DNA of 63,126 nt, filler included. It is 10 parts of 10 records of this genome, joined end to end, with 100 filler letters (N's around TTAATTAATTAA, not from the genome) between each part and the next. Parts side by side here need not be neighbours in the genome. Positions count along the whole stretch, not along the records: positions 23,415 to 29,213 come from SRR31147125_140411; 9 more parts are not named here. One strand, given 5' to 3'. Each line of letters begins with the position of its first letter. Positions within the stretch are counted from its first letter, which is position 1. The translations under genes were made by a program, and so were the position numbers. The notes beneath the pieces are model-generated. The model was not told where the DNA came from. It did not search any database and saw nothing but the letters and a program-made list of their open reading frames with translations. Positions 1,718-29,313 of this stretch are shown piece after piece.

Positions 1718-2599
1718 GTGAAAAGACTGCTCGTGACCGGCGCAAGCGGATTTCTGGGCTGGAATGTGATCCACCATGCCATGGGCGGGTGGGATGTGCA
1801 TGGCATCTGCCTGACCCATCCCGTGGCCATCCCCGGCGCGAGGATCATCCGGGTGGACATTACCCGTTATCAGGACCTTAAAAAGATCGTTTTCGAGGTC
1901 ATGCCGGCCGCGGTGATCCACGCAGCCGCGATATCCGACCCCAACGCCTGTGAACAAAACCCCGGCCAATCCAGAACCATCAACACCGATGCATCCATCC
2001 ATCTGGCCGGACTGTGCGCGGAGCTGGACATTCCCTGTCTGTTCGTCTCGTCCGATCTGGTCTTTGCCGGGACCAATGCACCCTACGCCGAAGACGATGA
2101 ACCTTGCCCCGTGAGTGCGTATGGCGATCAGAAGGTTCTGGCCGAAAAGGGCATGAGAAAAGTCTGCCCCCTGACCGTTGTTTGCCGCCTGCCCCTGATG
2201 TACGGAGATCCCGGGCCGGTAGCGACAAATTTCCTCCAGCCGTTGGCCCGGGCCTTGTCGACAGGACCTCCACCGAGGTTGTTCATTGACGAGTACCGAA
2301 CCCCACTCAGCGGCCGGTCTGCCGCAAAAGGACTGATGACGGCCCTTAGGACGCTTCCGCCGATTGTCCATCTGGGCGGAACGGAGCGAATCAGCAGATA
2401 CGAATTCGGCTGCGTGCTGGCGGATGTACTCGGTCTTTCACGGTCCAATATCATTGCTTGCCGGCAAAAAGAGATGGATATGCCGGCCAACCGTCCTCCG
2501 GATGTTTCTCTTGACAGTAGCCGGGCCCATGCCATGGGATTCACCCCGGGGTCTATCCGCGAAGAATTGGACTTCCTGAAATCCCGTTTGGAGTATTGA
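1718..2599 (+). CDS. dTDP-4-dehydrorhamnose reductase-like (RmlD family) extended SDR
   Basis: GASGFLG Rossmann motif, HAAA, SSDLVF, YGDQK (YxxxK), and C-terminal RPPDVSLDS. Confidence 0.85.
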   Translation: MKRLLVTGASGFLGWNVIHHAMGGWDVHGICLTHPVAIPGARIIRVDITRYQDLKKIVFEVMPAAVIHAAAISDPNACEQNPGQSRTINTDASIHLAGLCAELDIPCLFVSSDLVFAGTNAPYAEDDEPCPVSAYGDQKVLAEKGMRKVCPLTVVCRLPLMYGDPGPVATNFLQPLARALSTGPPPRLFIDEYRTPLSGRSAAKGLMTALRTLPPIVHLGGTERISRYEFGCVLADVLGLSRSNIIACRQKEMDMPANRPPDVSLDSSRAHAMGFTPGSIREELDFLKSRLEY

Positions 2600-2652
2600 T
2601 AAAATCAATCGTCGCATGAAGAAAAAGGCGTGGCTTTTCACAGCGATGCCGT

Positions 2653-5002
2653 TCATTTGATTGACAGACTGAATTCAACCAGGCCCGTTTCGCCTTCCGG
2701 TCCGGTTTTGATATGAACCGGTTTAACGTCAATACGCACAGAATCGATACCGGCCTGTTCTATCAGATAAACACTCACATTGTCGACCCGCTGTTGGGCA
2801 AGTGCTTTCAGTTCTTTGATGTCGACGGCCTCGACGCTAACCGCTTCGGGCGCTGTTTTCTCTTTATCCTGCGAATCGCCTCCAGGGGCGCTTTTCTCGG
2901 GCAATTCTCCCATTATGGCAGCTCCGTCCATCCGTCTGTCGGCCGATCCCTCGACAACCAGGATCAAGGCGTCTTTCTCCTTCAGATAACTTGCCAGCGC
3001 ATTCAGTTTTTGGATCTCCCTTTCCGTTAAGGCGGAGGTCCCATAATCGAAGGCGACAAGGCTCAACGCTTCACCCGTAAATCCGTCGATTTCCTTGATC
3101 GCTGAAAACGGCTCACTGCCGGCCTTATCAATGGTACCCGTGAGTGCGCTCTTAATGGTTTTAGCAAAATCAAAACGTGGGTCATGGACATCGCCGACCA
3201 CGGGCACCTGCAACGCGATACGGCCGCTTTTATCCTTTAATAGCGTCACGCCAAGCTTGATGGGCAGGTTGATTGCGTCGGGACTGTCGACCGCTTCACC
3301 CAATTCCAGGCCATCGATGGTGATTACGTTGTCGCCATCCACATGATCGTCGTCAATTTTATATTTCAAGTCCGTGTGCAACGTTCCTTCGGCAATCTTG
3401 TAGCCAATGTATTTCCCCGAGTAAGGGGACATCGATTTTAACGCGAAATCTTTCAATGACAAATCGACCTTGCTGTACTGCAGGGCATTCATGGGATTCA
3501 TCCTGCCGGAGGCATTGATGGTGGCTTTCCGATCGATACTGCCGGCAAGCTTGAAGTCGGACCGGGTTGACGGTTCGGAGGACAATCCGTTGACCGTGAC
3601 ATCGGTGATTTCCATGTGCGTGTTGAAGGTGGGGGCGACGGAAGCATCCATGAAATCCCCCGTAAAGCCTTGAAGACGGACCCGATCCACATGGATCGGC
3701 ATGGGACCTTTAAATTCCATGATCAAAAAGTTGACCAGGCGTTGCAGCAGGTCTTCCTCCCCCGAGTCCTTATTCTTATCTACCGGTGTGAAGGCCTTGA
3801 TAACATTGATCACGCCGGCTTCATTGATGGTCACGCCGGCGTGCGGCTGGTCGATGAGGACATCCGCTACGGAGAGTTTGTTGGGCAGCAATTCCAATGC
3901 GATTCCGCCGGTCTTGATGTGCGCCAGAGTGACAAAGTCATCGGATTGGACCTGGTCCTGCAATTCCAGTTCATCGAGGCTGAATTCGCCCTCATACCGG
4001 ATTTGCGGTTGGGCATCCTTGCCCCGGTATCGGATGCGTCCTTTCGAGCTGATAGTGCCGCTGATGATCTGAGCGTTGACCGCATCGTCAACATAAGCTT
4101 GAAACGGCTTCAAGTCGATTTTTGTCGTAACAGTCTTGAAATCAGCCAGCAATGGATCGATGCCCGCCGATCCGTTGATCTTGACTTGGCCCGCCCGGTT
4201 GATCAGCATGGTCACATCGACGGTCGCCTGGGTGTCTTTTTGAATTGAGAGATTCTCGACCACGGCACGAATGCCGTCAACCGACATTTTAGCCGGGTGC
4301 GTCAGGGTCCGATCCTCAAAGGCGATCCCCCAGTCGGTCACCTCCATTCTTTTGAGGGTTACCTGCCACGGTTGCGTATGGGGCGTTTCAGGTGCGGGGT
4401 CGTTAGCGGACTTTTCCCCCATAATTTTTTCCAGATCCTTGAGCAACATCTGTTGGAGGGCGATGGTGCCATCGGCTGAAAGCCATGAGTTGATTCGGGC
4501 ATCCGTGGTTTGAACCAAGTCGACAGTAATATCATGGGGTTTTAAATCCGCATGGATCCCTTCGGCGGAAAAAGCCGGCAAGGCAATCAACACCGTCTTC
4601 TGGCCCTTCTCCACCAATTCGAAATCGTCGAGTTGAATCCCGCCGTTTTCCAGACGGGCGATGAGTCCACTGTCATCGATTGCGGCGAAAAAGTCGCAGG
4701 CCATACCGACCCTACCCTTGACAATCTGGAAAGACACGAGATCCTTAAGATGTTCCCAGTGACGACTGAGCTGTGCATTCCTCGTGGTAACGTGCCCCTG
4801 GAGTCTGAGCGGATTGAGTTCAAGGTCGCCGCTAAGATCGAATGTGCCGCCGATGGGCCCCTTTCCAGTAATTTTAAATTCACCCTTACGCCCTTCCAGG
4901 GTGCTGAGATTCTCTAACGTAAAGGTTATCGGGGTGATGACGTCGTGGACTGGCCCAGTGGATGCCAGATCCTCGAAGGTGAATTTTCCGTTGGTTACTT
5001 CT
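2653..5002 (-). CDS. DUF748 domain envelope protein with OmpA-like C-terminal region (5' truncated)
   Basis: The frame stays open from 4737 to the contig end. It contains SPYSGKYIGY, LPIKLGVTLLKD..G.I.L.VPV.GD..DP.F and a C-terminal VAFDYGTSAL...VEGSAD. Confidence 0.75.
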
Positions 5003-5102
5003 NNNNNNNNNNNNNNNNNNNNNNNNNNNNNNNNNNNNNNNNNNNNTTAATTAATTAANNNNNNNNNNNNNNNNNNNNNNNNNNNNNNNNNNNNNNNNNN
5101 NN
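5003..5102. other. Artificial contig spacer (N44-TTAATTAATTAA-N44). The same spacer occurs at 11325-11424, 17750-17849, 23315-23414, 29214-29313, 34457-34556, 42262-42361, 47997-48096 and 55782-55881.
   Basis: Identical 100-nt linkers with stops in all six frames; composition and gene content change abruptly across them. Confidence 0.99.
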
Positions 5103-7433: not shown

Positions 7434-7820
7434 CACTTCAACTTTCACATTTGCAAAATTTGGGAAATCGTTTTGATTCGAACGCTGTAGCAGCCGCTGC
7501 CGAATGGATTTTTCAGAATCTACATCGCACATGGTCACGCGTGATACAGCTAAATCGGCAAATCATTTTTTTCATGCCGTATCTACGTTACCACACATTT
7601 CCATCCGCTGAAAACCCTTGAATTTATCCATACCCGCAGATATACTTTCTTTAATCCCAATTATACCCAATCAAGCAGTTTGTTCGGCCACACTCTATGA
7701 AACAGGAATTTTTCATCATTCATACCCAATTATTTCTTTAACTCGATATTCGAGTTTAGGGTACTTATCCCTCTCGGCTGGGTTAGGGAAGAATGAGTAA
7801 GAAGAAAGGAACAGTGACAC

Positions 7821-9020
7821 ATGGCATTGTGGGAAAAAGCCAAAGGCGAATTTATCGACATTATCGAGTGGACCGATGATTCATCCAACACCATGGTCTA
7901 CCGGTTTCCAAGATACGACAATGAAATCAAATACGGCGCTCAGTTGGTCGTTCGTCAAGCCCAAGCTGCTGTTTTTGTAAATAAAGGAGACATTGCCGAT
8001 GCGTTTCCCTCCGGTCAATACCGCCTGGAAACCGACAATCTGCCCATTCTCTCCACCCTTGCCGGTTGGAAATACGGATTCCACACTCCTTTCAAGGCGG
8101 AAGTCTATTTCGTCAATCTGAAAAACTTCACCAACCTGAAATGGGGAACCCGGAATCCGGTCATCCTGAAAGATCCGGAGTTCGGACCGGTCCGCCTTCG
8201 CTCTTTCGGCACCTATGTGATCAAAATTACCGATCCCAAGCGATTCATCAAAGAGATCGTGGGAACGGACGGTCTTTTTACTGTGGAGAAGGTGGAAGAG
8301 CAGCTCAGAAATCTCATTGTCAGCCGCTTTTCCGATCTGTTGGGGGAAAAGAAGCTGCCGGTGACGGATCTCACGGCCAATTATGATGAACTATCCGCCA
8401 TTCTCACCCGAATCATCGCTCCGGAATTTATGGAATACGGCCTGGATCTGACCAAACTGCTTGTGGAGAACATCTCTTTGCCCGTTGAAGTGGAAGAAGC
8501 GTTGGATAAACGGAGCAGCATGGGCGTGATCGGCAATCTGGATGAGTATTTCAAATACCAGAGCGCCAACGCCATGGAGAGGGCGGCTCAAAATCCCGGA
8601 GGAGATGCGGCATCTGGGATCGGGATGGGGATGGGCTTTGCCATGGCCAATCAGATGGGCAATGCCCTGTCAGGTCAAGGTCAAACAGAGCCCTTTTCCG
8701 GCGGTCATTCAACAGTCGGCATTCAAAATCATGCGGGGGCTGACCCGGAGCCGGCTCACCGAAAAACGAATGATGCAATAGGACGACGGGAGCCGCCTCC
8801 GATTCCGGAAGCGCAACCGGAGATGGAATACTATGTGGCCATCAATGGAAAGAAAATCGGGCCTCTGGCGCTGAAAGTGATCCTGCACAATATTAAAAAA
8901 GGGAAAATCAACAAGAAGACACTGGTGTGGCATCAAGGACTAAAGGATTGGCAACGGGCGAAGAGCATTGAGGCCTTCTCCGAGAGCTTTCAGATGCTTC
9001 CCCCCCTTCCCATTGAATGA
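7821..9020 (+). CDS. SPFH/band-7 domain protein (YdjI-like) with C-terminal GYF_2 domain
   Basis: N-terminal EFIDIIEW, KWGT..P motif, GIGMGMGFAMA linker, and C-terminal YYVAING..GP...TLVW..GL..W. Confidence 0.85.
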   Translation: MALWEKAKGEFIDIIEWTDDSSNTMVYRFPRYDNEIKYGAQLVVRQAQAAVFVNKGDIADAFPSGQYRLETDNLPILSTLAGWKYGFHTPFKAEVYFVNLKNFTNLKWGTRNPVILKDPEFGPVRLRSFGTYVIKITDPKRFIKEIVGTDGLFTVEKVEEQLRNLIVSRFSDLLGEKKLPVTDLTANYDELSAILTRIIAPEFMEYGLDLTKLLVENISLPVEVEEALDKRSSMGVIGNLDEYFKYQSANAMERAAQNPGGDAASGIGMGMGFAMANQMGNALSGQGQTEPFSGGHSTVGIQNHAGADPEPAHRKTNDAIGRREPPPIPEAQPEMEYYVAINGKKIGPLALKVILHNIKKGKINKKTLVWHQGLKDWQRAKSIEAFSESFQMLPPLPIE

Positions 9021-9050
9021 TGAATCAAGAAAACGTGAGGAATATTGCCC

Positions 9051-9707
9051 ATGGCAAAATGTATCAATTGCTCAGCTCCCCTTCCGCCCAACTCCATTGT
9101 GTGTGACTATTGCGGCAGTCGCAACGACACCGATTTGTTCGGCGTTCACACCTATACCACCCATGAGCTGGAATCCGGACGCATCTGCCCCCGATGCGAT
9201 GTCTCTTTGCAGACCATCGATCTGAAGATCCACGGCAAATTTTTCATTGAACGATGCGATCGATGTATGGGCCTATTTTTCGATCCCGGTGAGCTGGAAA
9301 CGCTGTTGGAAGCATCGGTGAAGCATGTTTACAGTATCAACTTCAAAAAATTATCCAACATCACCAACGCCATGACACCCGATGGGCAAAAGGTGTCTTA
9401 CATCAAATGTCCGGTCTGTTCGAAAATCATGAATCGGGCCAACTTCGGCACCCGGAGCGGCGTGATTGTCAATGGGTGTACCGATCATGGGATCTGGTTG
9501 GATGGCGGCGAGCTTCGCCGTCTGTTTGAATGGAAAAAAGCAGGCGGCACGTTACTGCATGAACAGCGTCAATTGGAGACCGCCCGGGAGAAAGAGAAAC
9601 GAGAAAAAGAAAAAACAGCTGAGGCTCAATTTTATGGAATAACCGAAGAGACGCAGAATCATGGGATTGGCGCACTGTTGGATGGGGTTGTTTCCTGGCT
9701 ATTTTAG
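9051..9707 (+). CDS. Zinc-ribbon (zf-TFIIB-like) repeat protein
   Basis: Several CxxC pairs; CPRC...C.RC.G.FFDPGELE and CPVC...C.DHGIWLDGGEL. Confidence 0.8.
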   Translation: MAKCINCSAPLPPNSIVCDYCGSRNDTDLFGVHTYTTHELESGRICPRCDVSLQTIDLKIHGKFFIERCDRCMGLFFDPGELETLLEASVKHVYSINFKKLSNITNAMTPDGQKVSYIKCPVCSKIMNRANFGTRSGVIVNGCTDHGIWLDGGELRRLFEWKKAGGTLLHEQRQLETAREKEKREKEKTAEAQFYGITEETQNHGIGALLDGVVSWLF

Positions 9708-9861
9708 TATCTTACATCTCGACTCATGTCGAAGAAAACAAAAACTTTGGTGAAAGGTACTTTTGGGTTGAAGGTTTCCCGCGTCAGCGATTTATTGCTT
9801 GCTCCCTACTTCTCTTTTTTCACATTAACTCCACCCCCTAAAAATACCTTTGAAAAATTCT

Positions 9862-10878
9862 TCACAACCTCATCCATGCAGCAGTGGTATCCAGCATCCG
9901 ATTGGCATAGGCCCATTCATTATCGAACCACGCCAATATCTTGACCAAATTCTCTCCACTGACCCGTGTCTGACTGCCGTCCACAATGGAAGAGCGGGAA
10001 TCATGATTGAAGTCGCAAGAAGCCAGAGGCTCTTCGGTATAGCCTAAAATTCCCGCCAATCGGCCGATGGAAGCGGCATCTCGAAGCATATCGTTCACCG
10101 TTTCCACATCCACACGCGTTTTCACCACCAGCGTAATGTCCAACGCCGAAACATTGATGGTGGGTACCCGCATGGAGACCGCCTGAAATCGACCGCTGAG
10201 CTGAGGCAGGATTCGCTCGATTCCTTTGGCAAGCTCGGTATCCACCGGGATGATGGATTGCCCGGCACAGCGTGTCCGGCGAAGATCATGATGATGGTAG
10301 GCATCGATCACCGGCTGATCGTTCATCACGGAGTGGATGGTGGTGATGATGCCCGACGCGATCCCCACCCGGTCATCCATCACCTTCAACACCGGAATGC
10401 TGCAGTTGGTGGTACATGACGCATTGGAGACAATGGTGTGATCGGCCTGCAAGGTCTCTTCGTTGATACCGTAAACGATTGTGGCGTCCACATCTTCCTC
10501 GGCGGGCTGGGAAAAAAGAACTTTCCGTGCACCGCTTTTGAGATGCGCTTTTGCCACCTGCCTTGATGTGAACGCGCCGGTACACTCCAGCACCACATCC
10601 ACATCCAGTTCTTTCCAGGGGAGTTGATCCAGCTCACGCTCATGGCTGATTCGGATTCGGTTGTTATTGACGAACAGATCCTTTTCACAGATCTCCACAC
10701 TGCCGGAAAAGCGTCCATGGGTGGTATCGTATTTTGTCAGATGGGCAATGGTCTTGGTTTCAGACAGCTCATTGATGGCCACCACTTCCAGGTTTCGGTA
10801 ATGGTGCGATTCATACAGCGCCCTTAACACAGATCGGCCGATCCGGCCGTAGCCATTGATTGCAAGTCGATATCCCAT
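9862..10878 (-). CDS. epd: Erythrose-4-phosphate dehydrogenase (GAPDH family)
   Basis: [19 protein letters not shown] and ASCTTNC motifs, plus the Epd-type LFSQP and [20 protein letters not shown]. Confidence 0.8.
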
Positions 10879-11054: not shown

Positions 11055-11424
11055 GAAATAATGAACAGCGATTATTTATTAAATAGTTTATTTGAAAGCT
11101 GTCGACAGCCATAGCCGGATCACAGCTTTCGATCTGAGATGTGAATAGGCCACTCATGAGCGTTCATTAGAAAGTCTCCATAAAATGCTGTAATAAAAAA
11201 ACTTTCACGCATCGTTGTGATGCGCCGACAAACATGGAGGTTTAGTGTGATTATCAATCAGATCATCTGAATGTCGAATTATCAAAAAATGACAATAATA
11301 TCTAAATAATATAAATGAAAAAAANNNNNNNNNNNNNNNNNNNNNNNNNNNNNNNNNNNNNNNNNNNNTTAATTAATTAANNNNNNNNNNNNNNNNNNNN
11401 NNNNNNNNNNNNNNNNNNNNNNNN

Positions 11425-17663: not shown

Positions 17664-17849
17664 ACTCTCTCCCACGTTTAAAGATCCCGACAATCATGGG
17701 CTAAAATGGCCCCACAGGTCATGCCATAGTCATTTTAGGACATAAAAAANNNNNNNNNNNNNNNNNNNNNNNNNNNNNNNNNNNNNNNNNNNNTTAATTA
17801 ATTAANNNNNNNNNNNNNNNNNNNNNNNNNNNNNNNNNNNNNNNNNNNN

Positions 17850-23314: not shown

Positions 23315-23536
23315 NNNNNNNNNNNNNNNNNNNNNNNNNNNNNNNNNNNNNNNNNNNNTTAATTAATTAANNNNNNNNNNNNNNNNNNNNNNNNNNNNNN
23401 NNNNNNNNNNNNNNCTCGGGGATTTCACTATTGCTACAAACAGTTATGCCTGCATATTGCTTCATGGATTGGTCCTTGTGCTTTGCTCAGGTTCTTATAT
23501 TACTCCAGATGAAGTACTCAAATTCGAATATGTAGT

Positions 23537-23585: not shown

Positions 23586-24188
23586 ATGCGCTGTACAGGG
23601 TATGTGAGAGTCTCAACCGAGCGACAGAGTAATGAGCATTGGAAAATCCTCTTGTCTGAATATGCTATGACACATGGGCTTCCTGAACCGGATTGGATAG
23701 AAGAAAACGTATCAGGAATCAAACCGTGGCGATCTCGGAGACTTTCTGAATTCATCAGCAACGCTGAGGTAGGTGATGTCTTACTTGTCGGAGAGGCATC
23801 TCGTATCGGTCGTGATGCTGCAGATGCATTAGACTTTGTCAAAGCAGCTAAGGCTGCAGGTATCATATTGCATATTCGGCCATTAGATCCTATCAAACCT
23901 AATAGTGGACCAGATTCGGCAACGATTATTCTTCCCGTCCTATTTGGTATTGCAGAATATGAGCGGCAAGTAATATCGGCTAGAACAAAGCTTGGATTAA
24001 AGAGAGCAAAGACTCAGGGAAAGGTGCTAGGTGGCTATCGTCGAGGTGGTAGAAAGCCCGGTGATGGTACTAGATCGGATAAGGCTGAGATACTAAGAGC
24101 TATCAAGGCCGGAGCAAGTATTCATGGCACCGCTAAGCGTTACTCTGTCTCTCGCTCAACAATATACCGGTGGATTGGAGAAGCCTAA
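23586..24188 (+). CDS. Small serine recombinase (resolvase/invertase) with C-terminal HTH
   Basis: GYVRVST..Q catalytic Ser motif, SRIGR, AEYER..I..RTK.GL..AK..G, and VSRSTIYRW HTH. Confidence 0.92.
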   Translation: MRCTGYVRVSTERQSNEHWKILLSEYAMTHGLPEPDWIEENVSGIKPWRSRRLSEFISNAEVGDVLLVGEASRIGRDAADALDFVKAAKAAGIILHIRPLDPIKPNSGPDSATIILPVLFGIAEYERQVISARTKLGLKRAKTQGKVLGGYRRGGRKPGDGTRSDKAEILRAIKAGASIHGTAKRYSVSRSTIYRWIGEA

Positions 24189-24228
24189 CTAATGACATGC
24201 AATAGTGAATCAAGCTTGGTCAAAATCT

Positions 24229-24792
24229 ATGAAACTGAATGATCAGAATATCCGAAAGAGTTGGATTGCTCATCTTGAAAAGAGTTTTCCTAAACCGAGG
24301 AAGATACTCAATGAGTTGCATGTTGTTGGAGGTATGGCAATAGCCGATATCGTATCCCTTCATTCGGAATGCCATTGCTATGAAATAAAGGGTGCCACAG
24401 ACAGTATTAGTAGGTTGAAGCGTCAGGGGAAGTATTTTGATGAGTCTTTTCGTCGTAATACGTTAATCACAACAGAAAATCACATCACGAATGCAGCAAA
24501 GTACATCCCCAGTTACTGGGGAATCGTTCTAGCAAAAGTCAAAAACGGAAAAATCGTCTTTCGCTATGTGCGCAAAGCAAAAAGAAGCGAGAGATTCACT
24601 AGAGCTTCTGCCTTGAAGCTGTTATGGCGAGACGAGCTAATAGAGCTTGCAGAACAAAGTGGTACCATGATCAACAGCAAAATGAATAAGAAAGACCTTT
24701 CTGAGCTTATAGGACAAAACTACCAAACAAAGAAATTGTCAGAAGATATTGCAACTATTCTGCTTTTTAGAAATCGAATGTCTTCACCATAA
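24229..24792 (+). CDS. sce7726-family PD-(D/E)xK nuclease-like protein
   Basis: E.....IADIV, YEIKGATDSISRLKRQ..YF, and IPSYWGIV...LLWRDEL. Confidence 0.8.
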   Translation: MKLNDQNIRKSWIAHLEKSFPKPRKILNELHVVGGMAIADIVSLHSECHCYEIKGATDSISRLKRQGKYFDESFRRNTLITTENHITNAAKYIPSYWGIVLAKVKNGKIVFRYVRKAKRSERFTRASALKLLWRDELIELAEQSGTMINSKMNKKDLSELIGQNYQTKKLSEDIATILLFRNRMSSP

Positions 24793-25830
24793 ACTCTAGA
24801 TGTGCATTTATCGAGTTCCTGACCATCAGAGGTGGGGTCAAGCGTGGAGGTATTCCCTGTGCCTTTTCATAGAAGACACTATCACCCAGAGAATACCCAT
24901 GACCTCTAAAAATGCTTTCTTTACTAAGTCATTGCATAGCTGGTAACACTGGTCGTTTCCTTTTGATTGGATGCTGCCGCCTCTACTAATGTAGAACTTG
25001 CTACCAAAAGGATAGACAATTTTTGGAGCAGTGATTTTTGGATAGAGTCTAGGATCGATAGGGACAAATGAGAACTCAGGTGAGATCGTAGTATAGTCTC
25101 CAAAGAAGAGATTGTCGGAGGATACTCCTCTTTTTTTTATACCCTGCATGATCTCTAGTTCGATACGATCATAGACTATAGAAGTCTCAGTTGTGACGAT
25201 AGAACCTAATGAAGGTGGAAGAGATGAACCACTAACTACTATTCGACATGGTTTCACAGTTTTCTGGATCTCCGCCATGAATCGAATGATCTTGTCTGTT
25301 GTCTGTTCTGTATCTAACCCACGGCATTGCCTTAGATCGATAATACAATGCTTGTCATCGAAACCTTCAATTTGCCCCAATAGTATTCTCAGATCATCTT
25401 CAATCAGCCGAAAAGCTGTAAAATCATCCTTAGTAAACCGAATTGCGATCTCATTACTTCTTATTCGATTCCGCATTTTGTACGATTTTACTAGATCAAT
25501 CCTTCTGGTATCTCTATCAAGACCAACAACTGGGATAAACAGAAAATCCAACAGTTTGTCGAGTATGTATTTGTATGGTAGATTTCCTTGGATGCTTATA
25601 CTGTCATCAAAATTGAAATCATCAATGTAAAACACAGGCAATTGTCGCAAGTGTTTTCGACACTTGCTGTCGAAATTGTCGATGGTTGCTACGTATTTAT
25701 CTTCGCTAGGTTCTCCGATATGCGGGAAATCAAAGAACACAATCAGAGACTCCTTCGTTTCATTACAAAGGTCCTTTATTGCAAATACTTCACCCTGTTT
25801 CGTATATAGAAAAGGTATATATCGAATCAA
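24767..25830 (-). CDS. Beta-family protein (phage P4 beta-like); one-base frameshift near 24908
   Basis: N-terminal YIPFL..KQGE..A..L, FGDYTTISP, and APKIVYP...YISRG. Adding one T restores FFRGHGYSLGDSVFYEKA...SINAHLEFMV, the typical Beta C-terminus, with its stop at 24767. Confidence 0.8.
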
Positions 25831-26657
25831 AAGAAAAACTCACGAACATTGATGGAGTTTATGATAGAATTGAACCTACTATAGTTGCCGGTTTCCTTAC
25901 GTATCCGACCAGCTAGAATAGCTGGATGTACATTCAGTGGTTCGGCATGTTCGGCTAATATAGTATCATTCGCAATTTGATTGTGTCGTAGCGATCTCCA
26001 TACATGTCTTGGGATCAATGAATTAGCTGCTAATAGGTTCGCTTCCTCTTCTCGCTCATTATCTTCAGGGTCTTCGAAGTCGTCGATAATCGCCGATTCA
26101 GCTGTTTCTATATGAAGAAAGACATGCGATAGTTCGTGTAAGAGTGTGAACCAGAAATAGTCATATCGTGAGTATCGCAGGCTCAAGCCTATTACTGGTA
26201 TTGATTCGTCTAGTAAGAAAGTTACCCCATCAACTTTTGAACCAGGCATACTATTTTCTGTCACAAGCAGAATGCCTGCATCAAATAGGACTCTTTCGAT
26301 ACTGCTGAGATTAGAATCGTCGGTCGATAATGAAGCAATATATTCCAAGTAATCTCTGTCTATGCCCTTGTACGTTGGAATCTCATTGATAGTACGGGAG
26401 AACGAAGCGATATTCCTTACTTTACTCAGCCAATATTGGTTAAGTGCATCACTCGCACTATCGCTTCGACGAAAGAGTCTATGCTCATCATTGGATGAAA
26501 TCTGGTACAATGACGTGGATACGATATTCCTGTCATATTTCTTCGGAATGTAGTTCATCGCTTCAACTACATTCTCAAAGTTAGCAAGAACTTCCTCAAT
26601 TGAAATTTCTTCTTTATTAACGTAGAAATCTTCATATTCCGGAGTGTCCGAAGTCAT
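25827..26657 (-). CDS. ImmA/IrrE-family Zn metallopeptidase (HigA-peptidase type, no obvious N-terminal HTH)
   Basis: SKVDGVTF, PVIGLSLRY.RYD.FWFTLLHELSH (HExxH), and EEEAN..A...LIP. Confidence 0.9.
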   Translation of the reverse strand: MTSDTPEYEDFYVNKEEISIEEVLANFENVVEAMNYIPKKYDRNIVSTSLYQISSNDEHRLFRRSDSASDALNQYWLSKVRNIASFSRTINEIPTYKGIDRDYLEYIASLSTDDSNLSSIERVLFDAGILLVTENSMPGSKVDGVTFLLDESIPVIGLSLRYSRYDYFWFTLLHELSHVFLHIETAESAIIDDFEDPEDNEREEEANLLAANSLIPRHVWRSLRHNQIANDTILAEHAEPLNVHPAILAGRIRKETGNYSRFNSIINSINVREFFF

Positions 26658-27312
26658 AGTAGCTCCTTTGCAAATTCTTGCGATAACTTAGGATCCATTT
26701 CAAAAAAAATAGTTGAGATACGTCGTGTTTCGGAATGCTTGTCATACCGATTTTCTCATAGAATGATTTTGCTTGATTTAGAGCCAAGAGATTGAAACCA
26801 AAACCTAGACTGAATCTGGTCACAACATCTTGTTGAATAGCTTTCATCAGGATACTACCAAGCCCTTTGAACTTCTGATCACCTAGTGGGTTAATCCTAT
26901 TCCATGGAGCGACGGCAATATAATCAATATAGAATACACTATTTGGATGGATCTTGCTAGGCGAAGGCTGCTTAATCAAGCAGACTGCCTGAGGAGTCAT
27001 ATCTACCATCAGGTAGTACCAGAAAAACGGCGGTGATGATCTTTTTGTATGTTTATCAAGCCAATCCCAGTGTTTATCTCCTAGCTGTACCTTTGACAAT
27101 ATCGAACGTATATTCGGTTCGTCTTTCATATGATATACGTAATCTGCAACTTCATTGTGGTACCTGCCCCATAGCCGGTCACATTTCGCTGCTATAATCG
27201 GATCCCAGCCAAACAGAATACAATACTCATGACAGACTCCTGATGCGTCTTCGACAGATCCTTCTCTGATAATCGAATCAGGGTTGATCGTAATGGGTTC
27301 TCGCTCTAGCAT
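26654..27312 (-). CDS. GNAT acetyltransferase; one-base frameshift in the T8 run near 26705
   Basis: HWDW, YIDYIAVAPWNR, KFKGLGSILM (motif A) and AKSFYEKIGM. Adding one T gives LFFFEMDPKLSQEFAKELL* with the stop overlapping the ImmA ATG (ATGA). Confidence 0.85.
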
Positions 27313-27978
27313 ATTTCAGATTTCAGCTATGGAGTACATATGTAAACAAAAATCCTTGTTTATTGATAAATGCTAGGTGCATTGTTCTCAACCTAGTCTC
27401 ATTCTGCCTAATGATAGCGCATGATCGCTATTGAGTGTAGAAGAATCCATATCCACGAAAACCCTAGTAGTCTGGTTTTGACAAGAGAATTGCTACAAGA
27501 GAATGACGCCCTATGCATAGCCCTGTTGTCATACAGCGATCCTGAGTTCCCCAAGTGGAACGATCCAGTAGTAGTTCCTAATACTGGCAATTGGGATTCA
27601 AACGAACGATATCATGAACTGATTGAATAATACTTGTAGTTCGTGGGTATCTTCGACTTCAAATGTACCAAAACAGACTGCTGAGAGTATAACAACCACT
27701 GAGTGTACCCTCTTATAGTCGGAAGTCACAGAAAAAGCGATAGACTCACTATCCGATTGGATCAGTTTCCGAGGGGTAGGTCAGTGGTCAAATTGGGGTG
27801 TGAGGTCAATGTGACTCTCTTTGCCCTTTCGCCTGGAATCGCCTTTTTTTCCTATTGCGCTAAATAGTAAACAATGTAATCTTTATAAGCAGGTTGAGAT
27901 TACTCCATATTAAATTTCTTCGTCTATGAATCTGTTTCAATCGTAATTAGCGACTAGACACTCGAGGGGAGTAGTATT

Positions 27979-29076
27979 CTGGAAATTCTGAACACCACTG
28001 AGAAATTTTTTGTCGGTAGAAGGGTTGAGTTGGGTACCCTCAGAGATTATTTCTACAGCGGCAAGCGTTTGGTACAGGTTGTTGGCGATACAGGAATGGG
28101 TAAAACATCACTTGCTATCGCCTTCGCTAATAATTTCGGTAATATGTTTCCTGGTGGGATTTGCTACAATAATGTTTCGACCGGAATGGGGATTGATTGG
28201 ATACTTACCAACCACGTTCACCTTAAGAACAAAGATAATGTGCTTCAAATCATCGATGATGCGGGATTTCTTGCTGATGGGTCAGAGTTGACTATCCCCG
28301 CTGTCTTGAGAAATGTACCGAATCTCTATCTTCTATTAGTTACGGACGTAATCCTTCACTTTCCCGGTATCAGTCCACCAGTAATTTCGCTGACAGGGCT
28401 CAACCCTACAGAGTTCAATCAACTCCTGTCACGCTATGAGGCAATACCAAATGACAATGTAGCTTCTCGGCTTCATGAATGTGTTGATGGTAGTCCTCAA
28501 CTTGGTGAACTTGCATCGGAGTGTGCCAACGACAAGCTAGTTACTTTAGAAGAGTTCATCGATGCATATCAGGGTTTTCATTACTCGCCTATAGTGGGAC
28601 CAGACGGCGAGTCATCAGACCTAGATACGGCCGTTCTTAAGCCTATAGTTGTGTCAGTCACGAATATCAACGAAGAGCTCCTTCGACGGTTTCGTTCATC
28701 ACCGGAAATGATGAGGCACCTCGCTCCAAGGAAATTCGAGGAGTTGGTAGCTGAATTGCTTACGAAACAAGGCTATAGCATTGAGCTAACTCCTGCATCC
28801 AAAGACGGTGGTTTTGACATGTATGCAGCAAAACATGATGCTTTGGGTAAGTTTCTCTATTTGGTTGAATGTAAACGGTATAATCCACCAAACAAAGTGG
28901 GCGTTCATGTTATTCGGTCCTTGCATGGTGTTGTTCAACAAAGACAAGTTAATGCAGGCATTGTCATAACCACTTCTTTTTTCACCAAAGAAGCCACAGA
29001 GTTTTCAAAGACGATTCAACACCAATTACAGCTCCAAGACTATTTTGCACTCAAAAAGTTACTCGGGCTCATCTAG
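27979..29076 (+). CDS. P-loop (STAND-like) NTPase fused to a C-terminal Mrr-type restriction endonuclease
   Basis: FVGRRVEL, Walker A GDTGMGKT and Walker B LQIIDD. The nuclease part has PRKFEELVAELL...GY, DGGFD, VECKRY and TTSFFT. The frame is open back to a TAG at 27955, and a GAGGGGAG RBS precedes CTG at 27979. Confidence 0.85.
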   Translation: MEILNTTEKFFVGRRVELGTLRDYFYSGKRLVQVVGDTGMGKTSLAIAFANNFGNMFPGGICYNNVSTGMGIDWILTNHVHLKNKDNVLQIIDDAGFLADGSELTIPAVLRNVPNLYLLLVTDVILHFPGISPPVISLTGLNPTEFNQLLSRYEAIPNDNVASRLHECVDGSPQLGELASECANDKLVTLEEFIDAYQGFHYSPIVGPDGESSDLDTAVLKPIVVSVTNINEELLRRFRSSPEMMRHLAPRKFEELVAELLTKQGYSIELTPASKDGGFDMYAAKHDALGKFLYLVECKRYNPPNKVGVHVIRSLHGVVQQRQVNAGIVITTSFFTKEATEFSKTIQHQLQLQDYFALKKLLGLI

Positions 29077-29313
29077 ATATATAATCAAAACCATAAGAGC
29101 TACTACTTGATAGTAGGTATATTATGCAAAAGTCACACCAAAAGTGATAAAGTCAAATAAAACTCACATGGCTATTCGGGGTAACAGGTGATAATTTGTG
29201 ATAACTCTGGTGGNNNNNNNNNNNNNNNNNNNNNNNNNNNNNNNNNNNNNNNNNNNNTTAATTAATTAANNNNNNNNNNNNNNNNNNNNNNNNNNNNNNN
29301 NNNNNNNNNNNNN

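Follow-up and report, generated by a model that had tools for sequence, protein, structure and literature searches.

What a GNAT-fold acetyltransferase, an ImmA/IrrE-type metallopeptidase, a protein of the Beta family and an sce7726-like nuclease might do together, and whether a copy in which two of these genes appear broken could still work, are the questions raised by a four-gene locus found in a 63,126-nucleotide stretch of DNA (the window). This stretch is made up of ten contigs of 5.0 to 7.7 kb joined by nine N spacers, so that adjacency across the spacers is meaningless. Our analysis indicates that the locus is probably a mobile anti-phage cassette of the abortive-infection type and an intact member of the Beta-centered ("TIM-B") family of conflict systems, which includes gop-beta-cII of the satellite P4 and PD-lambda-2 of Escherichia coli.

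An earlier interpretation made from the letters alone (the sequence-only reading) had proposed three translationally coupled genes on the minus strand, with a peptidase devoid of a helix-turn-helix (HTH) domain among them, convergent with the nuclease gene, after the repair of a one-base homopolymer indel in the GNAT gene and of the Beta gene. The open reading frame (ORF) listing and the family scans located all four genes in the same places and with the same identities (Table 1). Once the two broken genes are corrected (see below), the TGA stop of the GNAT gene (26654-26656) overlaps the ATG start of the ImmA gene (26655-26657) in an ATGA, and the TGA stop of the latter (25827-25829) overlaps the TTG start of the Beta gene (25828-25830) in a TTGA, whereas the Beta gene reads through to a stop at 24767-24769, 26 nt into the convergent sce7726-like gene. 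Both couplings and the overlap were thereby confirmed.

Table 1. Position of the cassette genes, natural disruptions in related cassettes and other features of the window
Sequence	Feature	Position	Strand	Evidence or remark
Window	GNAT-fold acetyltransferase, first operon gene	26654-27312 (corrected)	-	Fold and family matches
Window	ImmA/IrrE (M78, COG2856) metallopeptidase, HTH-less	25827-26657	-	PF06114, 1.3e-10
Window	Beta (Pfam Beta_protein; "TIM-B" of the preprint)	24767-25830 (corrected)	-	PF14350, 3.2e-33
Window	sce7726/P4 cII-type predicted PD-(D/E)xK nuclease	24205-24792	+	NCBIfam NF033832, 5.7e-41
Window	Beta/sce7726 tail-to-tail coding overlap	24767-24792	both	Computed, 26 nt
L057	IS21 within Beta	7540-10293		Cassette otherwise complete
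L064	IS3 in the last 25 codons of Beta	8404-9675		Cassette otherwise complete
L039	IS3 at the peptidase/Beta junction	2340-3530		Cassette otherwise complete
L021	In-frame stop in Beta			
L065	Frameshift in Beta			Could be a sequencing error
L069	Internal deletion in GNAT			
Window	Serine recombinase (resolvase)	23586-24188	+	Resolvase, 9.8e-22
Window	P-loop NTPase fused to Mrr nuclease domain	28030-29076	+	Mrr_cat, 1.5e-29
Window	Spacers	5003-5102, 11325-11424, 17750-17849, 23315-23414, 29214-29313 and four more		

The strongest indication that these genes form a unit comes from their conservation in other genomes. A scan of 185,579 species, each represented by a single genome, with the GNAT alignment gave 237 pattern matches, 221 of which were confirmed by tblastn, and the best 80 loci were kept. 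By phmmer with the window proteins, 73 of these loci have the peptidase, 71 have Beta and 70 have the nuclease. In 70 of the 80, all four genes keep the order and orientation of the window, a co-occurrence far beyond chance and in line with the four-gene system proposed by the sequence-only reading. The incomplete loci comprised seven cut off by the edge of a contig (L030, L037, L042, L055, L056, L058 and L071; the remainder of Beta of L055 lies on another contig) and three distant GNATs that have no partner genes (L075, L077 and L079). The tail-to-tail overlap between Beta and the nuclease was present in 60 of the 70 complete cassettes (range, 4 to 74 nt), and the commonest state of the GNAT/peptidase junction was the 4-nt overlap (31 of 70). 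In addition, the pairwise-identity matrices of the four proteins in 67 loci were correlated with Spearman coefficients of 0.74 to 0.87, compared to a maximum of 0.30 over 200 label permutations. All four genes are inherited together, as a block.

This block is widely, if unevenly, distributed. Pseudomonadota accounted for 55 of the 68 phylum-labeled rows of a 74-row ImmA tree, and the other hosts belonged to Thermodesulfobacteriota, Verrucomicrobiota, Campylobacterota, Bdellovibrionota and Planctomycetota, together with one Riflebacteria genome. The window copy forms a deep branch of this tree, with no more than 39% identity to any other. Intact cassettes occur in, for example, Collimonas rhizosphaerae H4R21 (L001), Pseudomonas putida PSE9 (L044) and Desulfogranum japonicum DSM 18378 (L009). 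Two near-identical contigs of 4.3 to 4.4 kb (L016 and L017), binned as Asgard archaea and containing little beyond the cassette, adjoin a Planctomycetota copy in the tree and look like bin contamination or a very recent transfer.

The first gene of the operon is the least easily recognized. Taken singly it gave only a weak Pfam match (PF13673, 0.017), and in the alignment of 61 members of the family PF13673 was found in 34 and PF00583 in 11. It belongs to a distinct GNAT family, for which 899 clusters at an E value of ≤1e-3 and 69 at ≤1e-30 were retrieved when 1.84 billion representatives were searched with its profile. It had no PADLOC match at an E value of ≤0.1, and a sequence-profile search of the PDB returned E values of 0.38 to 1 only. 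The AlphaFold2 (AF2) model, with a predicted local distance difference test (pLDDT) score of 90.2, has a complete GNAT fold, to which a hairpin is added at the N terminus, and Foldseek found 154 matches in the PDB at an E value of ≤1e-3, the best of those listed all being GNATs. When these were re-ranked with VIA, the toxins TacT, TacT3, AtaT, KacT and GmvT tied with RimI, RimL and Nat enzymes (Z of 11 to 12.6), and tRNA-acetylating GNAT toxins made up 16 of the 50 best-ranked entries. The glycines of the Gly-x-Gly coenzyme A (CoA) loop are invariant in a three-sequence alignment (G150 and G152, window numbering) and nearly invariant in another alignment (G159 and G161, L001 numbering). The motif-A and FY regions, which are also conserved, can be aligned with those of known GNATs. 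The modeled fold thus fits a toxin without proving one.

The second gene codes for a peptidase that matches the PADLOC profile PD-Lambda-2_B (6.8e-55). Since this match spans only positions 149 to 396 of the 402 of the profile, the protein is devoid of the HTH domain, and no HTH family was found in it by Pfam. The HExxH motif (H174, E175 and H178), H182 and the downstream glutamate (E203) are invariant among 53 sequences, and PDB profiles gave matches to 9vzy_A (8.9e-6) and CapP (7t5t_A, 1.6e-4).

The Beta protein is closer to PD-lambda-2 than to P4 in the PADLOC profiles, with E values of 8.6e-27 (PDLC03983) and 1.1e-23 (PDLC03984) for PD-Lambda-2_C versus a weak 3.1e-4 for the P4-type "beta." The model of a cassette homologue (L020) is a TIM barrel (pLDDT of 95.4), for which a wide VIA search retrieved generic TIM barrels with Z up to 13.3 and 648 chains at a Z of ≥8; PDB sequence profiles detected no solved relative. 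The Beta proteins have invariant Asp, Glu and Arg residues. A tblastn search with one cassette Beta against the phage collection gave nothing at 1e-3, P4 beta included, and hidden Markov models (HMMs) built from the cassettes did reach the P4 proteins (4e-12 for beta and 2.1e-26 for cII). In a census of 400 genomes of one class, Beta matches appeared in 6 genomes, one being the center genome itself, which is too few for frequencies. The contexts found there were Beta with cII alone, an HTH-peptidase with Beta, a small M78 peptidase and Beta in tandem, and the GNAT cassette. One contig of one genome (L112, L115 and L116) shows another layout of the family, in which a gene for an M78 peptidase of ca. 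172 residues and a Beta gene after it are repeated in tandem, without a cII-type gene.

For the convergent gene, kinship with P4 CII had been raised as a point to check, and it was borne out by the HMM match to P4 cII, along with the RefSeq name of P4 cII, which is "sce7726 family protein." The window protein also matched PADLOC "cll" (1.8e-18) and phrog_984 (3.7e-28). Residues E37, D48, E60 and K62, which correspond to the PD-(D/E)xK pattern, are invariant among 51 sequences, and no solved relative was found by PDB sequence profiles.

In the assembly as given, two of the four genes are interrupted, the ORFs being 26632-27312 (minus strand) for GNAT and 24838-25830 (minus strand) for Beta. Both breaks are located at homopolymers, a run of eight A's (26702-26709) in the first and a run of five A's (24908-24912) in the second. 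The independently built Logan contigs of a public run, X1, in which a fraction of 0.97 of the words sampled from the locus is present, have one more A in either run, one more G in an intergenic run of four (27773-27776), and an AG-to-GA swap at 27318-27319 with respect to the window. The homologues also back the shifted frames. The assembled GNAT ORF departs from them just ahead of the conserved C-terminal YFEM motif; the PF14350 match to the assembled Beta ORF covers only profile positions 1 to 301 of 342, its C-terminal part going on in another frame; and the cassette Beta HMM covers the window copy in two frames (positions 3 to 310 and 306 to 355). Because the three single-base undercalls all fall in runs of 4 to 8 identical bases, they point to consensus errors of the assembly rather than to decay, and the copy in the window, read in this way, is intact. 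Three homopolymer undercalls plus one swap in 5.8 kb also mean that other apparent frameshifts in the contigs of the window may be artifacts. The lesson for this DNA is that the apparent pseudogenes are in all likelihood assembly errors.

The surroundings of the cassette speak of mobility. For 61 loci, left after nine near-duplicates were dropped, we took the largest ORF in the 2.5 kb to either side, which gave 111 ORFs. Mobile-element domains were present in 17 of them, including 6 integrases and 4 P2-type GPA replication proteins. Another 14 contained domains that we take to be of defense type (HsdR, DNA methylases, SoFic, DUF5677, HTH-M78, ThiF/JAB/E2 and UvrD-nuclease). We consider an island context for the cassette moderately supported by these figures. 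Among viral contigs, IMG/VR provided six relatives, four of which carried the full cassette, two of these among P2-like phage genes. In L103 it adjoins P2-type portal, terminase, scaffold and capsid genes; in L104 it lies within a lambdoid immunity region, next to a CI-type repressor; and in L105 it has a CI-type repressor on one side and an integrase on the other, a position named as a hotspot by Rousset et al. 2022 (PMC9122126). The four genes ride on prophages and islands. In Collimonas (L001, 2876-3790), a gene for a small terminase subunit ca. 2 kb upstream of the cassette suggests a prophage or satellite remnant.

What such a cargo does can be approached through two relatives that have been studied experimentally. 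PD-lambda-2, as described by Vassallo et al. 2022 (PMC9519451), consists of a HigB-like protein (A), a peptidase with an Xre-type HTH (B) and a protein related to the P4 antitoxin (C); B is toxic alone and is rescued by A, and C is dispensable for this neutralization and required against lambda-vir. The gop-beta-cII module confers protection from both lambda and P1 (Rousset et al. 2022, PMC9122126), and its toxicity is triggered by the phage gene orf184 (Silas et al., 10.1101/2023.04.06.535777). By analogy, we propose that coupled translation would supply the three operon proteins of the cassette in fixed proportion, and that in the uninfected cell the cassette products would keep each other silent. 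A phage cue might then act through proteolysis by the HTH-less peptidase, which would be the switch, releasing a growth arrest for which the best candidate is the GNAT, acetylating an amine target. Alternatively, by analogy with PD-lambda-2 B, the peptidase itself could be the toxic part and the product of the first gene its neutralizer. Beta, as a putative TIM-barrel enzyme, might provide an enzymatic step needed for the defense output, and the nuclease could serve as an additional effector or as a regulator, with the antisense 3' overlap as its link to the operon. The multi-layer switch of acetylation, proteolysis, Beta and nuclease proposed by the sequence-only reading would likewise be hypothetical.

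Several observations weigh against this picture. The first gene is no homologue of either the HigB-like PD-Lambda-2_A or Gop, and the roles established in those systems are not safely transferable; for the GNAT-type cassette itself, we infer the defense, the toxicity and the protein-protein and enzyme-substrate links. The relatives also differ in their parts. A search of 301 genomes of one order found five full-length HTH-type B genes, all with A upstream and only two with Beta. The canonical loci (L096 to L100) all possess a PD-Lambda-2_A gene (86 to 94 residues), and no Beta was present in the scanned ORFs of three of these five A-B loci (L098, L099 and L100); therefore, the PD-lambda-2 A-B pair also exists apart from Beta. 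Downstream of L096, the only complete A-B-C locus among them, no cII-type match was found. Among the flanking ORFs of the cassette, 43 of the 111 were of housekeeping or other type and 37 belonged to no Pfam family. A scan of the cassette contig for promoters and terminators gave 11 and 4 sites, respectively, versus 15.5 and 3.5 expected, none above chance. Finally, X1 may be the very source sample of the window, in which case its contigs are a second assembly, perhaps of the same reads, and not independent DNA.

The first alternative is that the cassette is an addiction (toxin-antitoxin [TA]) module that only stabilizes the prophage, island or plasmid that carries it, with no anti-phage role. 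It is a cargo of mobile elements, its first protein has GNAT toxins from TA pairs among its nearest structural matches, and A and B of PD-lambda-2 do act as a toxin-neutralizer pair (PMC9519451), all of which would suit such a role. However, both of the experimentally tested relatives protect against phages (PMC9519451, PMC9122126), and four genes coding for three or four enzymes are more than addiction requires. The natural disruptions are also unexpected under this explanation. We found six in the 70 complete cassettes, five of them in Beta and one in GNAT (Table 1), and none of the peptidase or the nuclease; in the cassettes with a broken Beta the other three genes are intact, which would not be expected if Beta were a needed antitoxin. 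We consider an addiction module unlikely.

The bias of these disruptions deserves some attention. Beta represents one-third of the coding length, and the binomial probability of at least five of six disruptions falling in it is about 0.02, a value calculated by hand and post hoc, from a small sample in which silent inactivating mutations elsewhere are possible. Since an indispensable antitoxin should be the part least often lost, the bias hints that Beta is not the antitoxin assumed for P4 and in the TIM-B model. Along these lines, it is conceivable, if rather doubtful, that in the GNAT subtype Beta would be a sensor or output enzyme dispensable for viability, as reported for PD-lambda-2 C, and that what cells could not do without would be the HTH-less peptidase and the cII-type nuclease. 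The pattern is a better fit to PD-lambda-2 C than to the repressor model of P4 and TIM-B.

A second alternative is self-marking of nucleic acid or tRNA, in which a base-exchanging TIM-barrel enzyme and the acetyltransferase would modify the host and the nuclease would cut unmodified targets in a manner similar to restriction-modification. The constant presence of the convergent nuclease is consistent with it, as is the relationship of TIM-B to deazaguanine transglycosylases drawn in a preprint by Li, Burroughs and Aravind (bioRxiv 10.64898/2026.10.19.760177, 22 October 2026). The fold searches with the Beta model, though, gave generic TIM barrels, with no TGT/DpdA chain among the 50 best matches listed from either Foldseek against the PDB or VIA, which is not decisive. 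The five loci with a broken Beta and an intact nuclease are harder to accommodate, as this combination would be lethal in the logic of restriction-modification unless the nuclease were silent. Such a system appears very unlikely to us.

Third, the block might control lysogeny or induction, with an anti-repressor protease of ImmA type and a "cII" regulator setting the life cycle of the element. ImmA and IrrE proteases are reported to cleave HTH repressors, the cassettes of L104 and L105 adjoin CI-type repressors, and phrog_2439, annotated as "transcriptional regulator," matches the peptidase. However, the peptidase is without HTH, neither the window nor any of the 70 complete loci has a cognate HTH repressor gene within the block, and many of the loci lie in plain chromosomal settings. 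The neighbors vary, and the four genes stay constant. Moreover, what is called "cII" here is a protein of nuclease fold with an invariant D...ExK motif. We regard this explanation as scarcely probable. It is just as hard to believe that the window copy is the decayed remnant of a pseudogene, since the two frameshifts that break GNAT and Beta in the sequence as given are, like a third, intergenic difference, single-base undercalls in short homopolymers at which the X1 contigs carry the extra base.

An abortive-infection cassette remains our preferred reading, and the genes beside it in the window can be considered separately. Because the window is assembled from short contigs, the contiguous context of the cassette is limited to 5.8 kb, that is, to the contig at 23415-29213 (5,799 bases; GC content of 0.41, with 0.42 to 0.54 in the other pieces), on which the ORF listing shows six genes. 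The pieces are joined by spacers (44 N + TTAATTAATTAA + 44 N), and therefore the flagellar and kinase genes of the window are not neighbors of the cassette. The contig breaks at a repeat, as its first 30 bases were found again in several other Logan contigs with deeper coverage. Nearest to the cassette is a serine recombinase gene that ends 16 nt ahead of the start of the sce7726-like gene and matches the NCBIfam Mpi-type invertase model at 3.7e-27, under the cutoff of the model. On the other side, the NTPase-Mrr gene matched PADLOC PDC-S02 (6.1e-14) and mREase_IV (2.5e-13). These two genes had been adduced as signs of a defense island, a support that falls away with so little real context and with the resolvase present in 1 of the 80 loci and the NTPase-Mrr gene in none. 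Neither is part of the system, and the latter is best considered a separate candidate restriction-like defense gene, unlinked to the cassette elsewhere.

How the cassette stands with respect to known systems can now be specified. It resembles PD-lambda-2 of E. coli in being a three-gene, co-directional operon with overlapping genes, in which the peptidase corresponds to B and Beta to C. It differs in its first gene, which codes for a GNAT of 226 residues where PD-lambda-2 has a HigB-like protein of ca. 90, in a peptidase without the N-terminal Xre HTH, and in the convergent cII-type nuclease, for which no match was found downstream of L096. In the same search of 301 genomes, both of the HTH-less B genes proved to be GNAT cassettes. 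With P4 gop-beta-cII (NC_001609) the cassette shares the arrangement of an effector followed by beta on one strand and cII convergent; the P4 record confirmed this layout, which the sequence-only reading had cited, and its view that GNAT and peptidase take the place of gop is also supported. Unlike P4, there is no gop gene in the cassette, its Beta is nearer the PD-lambda-2 type by the PADLOC scores, and its cII-type protein has 195 residues versus 264 in P4 cII.

Compared with the GNAT toxins of type II TA systems (TacT, AtaT, KacT and GmvT), the first protein has the same fold, Gly-x-Gly CoA loop and FY motif, but it has an additional hairpin at the N terminus and is extended at the C terminus, and no adjacent gene for a cognate DNA-binding (RHH-type) antitoxin was found in the conserved block. 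N-terminal acetyltransferases of the Rim/Nat type score as well as the toxins against the cassette GNAT fold. The peptidase, for its part, shares the HExxH motif and the downstream Glu ligand with the repressor-cleaving proteases of the ImmA/IrrE group (M78, COG2856), from which it differs in having no HTH repressor beside it in the block or fused to it.

The closest description is that of the "TIM-B systems" in the preprint of Li, Burroughs and Aravind (10.64898/2026.10.19.760177). Its authors bring Beta (PF14350) and the TIM barrel together under the name TIM-B, which they relate to queuine/deazaguanine transglycosylases. As effectors they list HigB, a nuclease, Pol-beta, an "amino-group acyltransferase (GNAT)," sirtuin, RES, caspase and 2TM proteins. 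The gene between effector and TIM-B often codes for a metallopeptidase, which in some cases carries an HTH at its N terminus, and a nuclease gene runs convergently and overlaps. The cassette has this layout, with a Beta core, an upstream GNAT effector on the same strand, an intervening metallopeptidase and a convergent, overlapping nuclease. In the model of the preprint, the effector is under constitutive repression by TIM-B, with the protease providing a further step that lifts it, and the two arms become alternatives to one another through the antisense overlap. The natural knockouts of Beta sit uneasily with such a constitutive negative regulator. The TIM-B section of the preprint gives no counts, gene order or tests for the GNAT form, for which our literature search found nothing beyond this preprint and no experimental record. 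Nevertheless, this type of cassette is not new, having already been described in silico, and the sequence-only reading, which knew of no characterization of the combination and had itself named a match to a known system as grounds for refutation, has to be abandoned on this point: its peptidase and Beta correspond to B and C of the tested PD-lambda-2, and the preprint lists the GNAT, the metallopeptidase and the convergent nuclease.

What is new here is not a kind of system but a well-documented and intact member, the census of the four-gene order, the co-divergence of the proteins, the placement at P2-type hotspots and the bias of the disruptions toward Beta. The cassette offers a tractable version of these systems, in which every part is a recognizable enzyme with invariant catalytic residues, and the targets of Beta, the GNAT and the HTH-less protease, once known, would explain a whole family of defense modules of P2/P4 elements. 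It links two tested and mechanistically unexplained systems, P4 gop-beta-cII and PD-lambda-2, through one conserved architecture.

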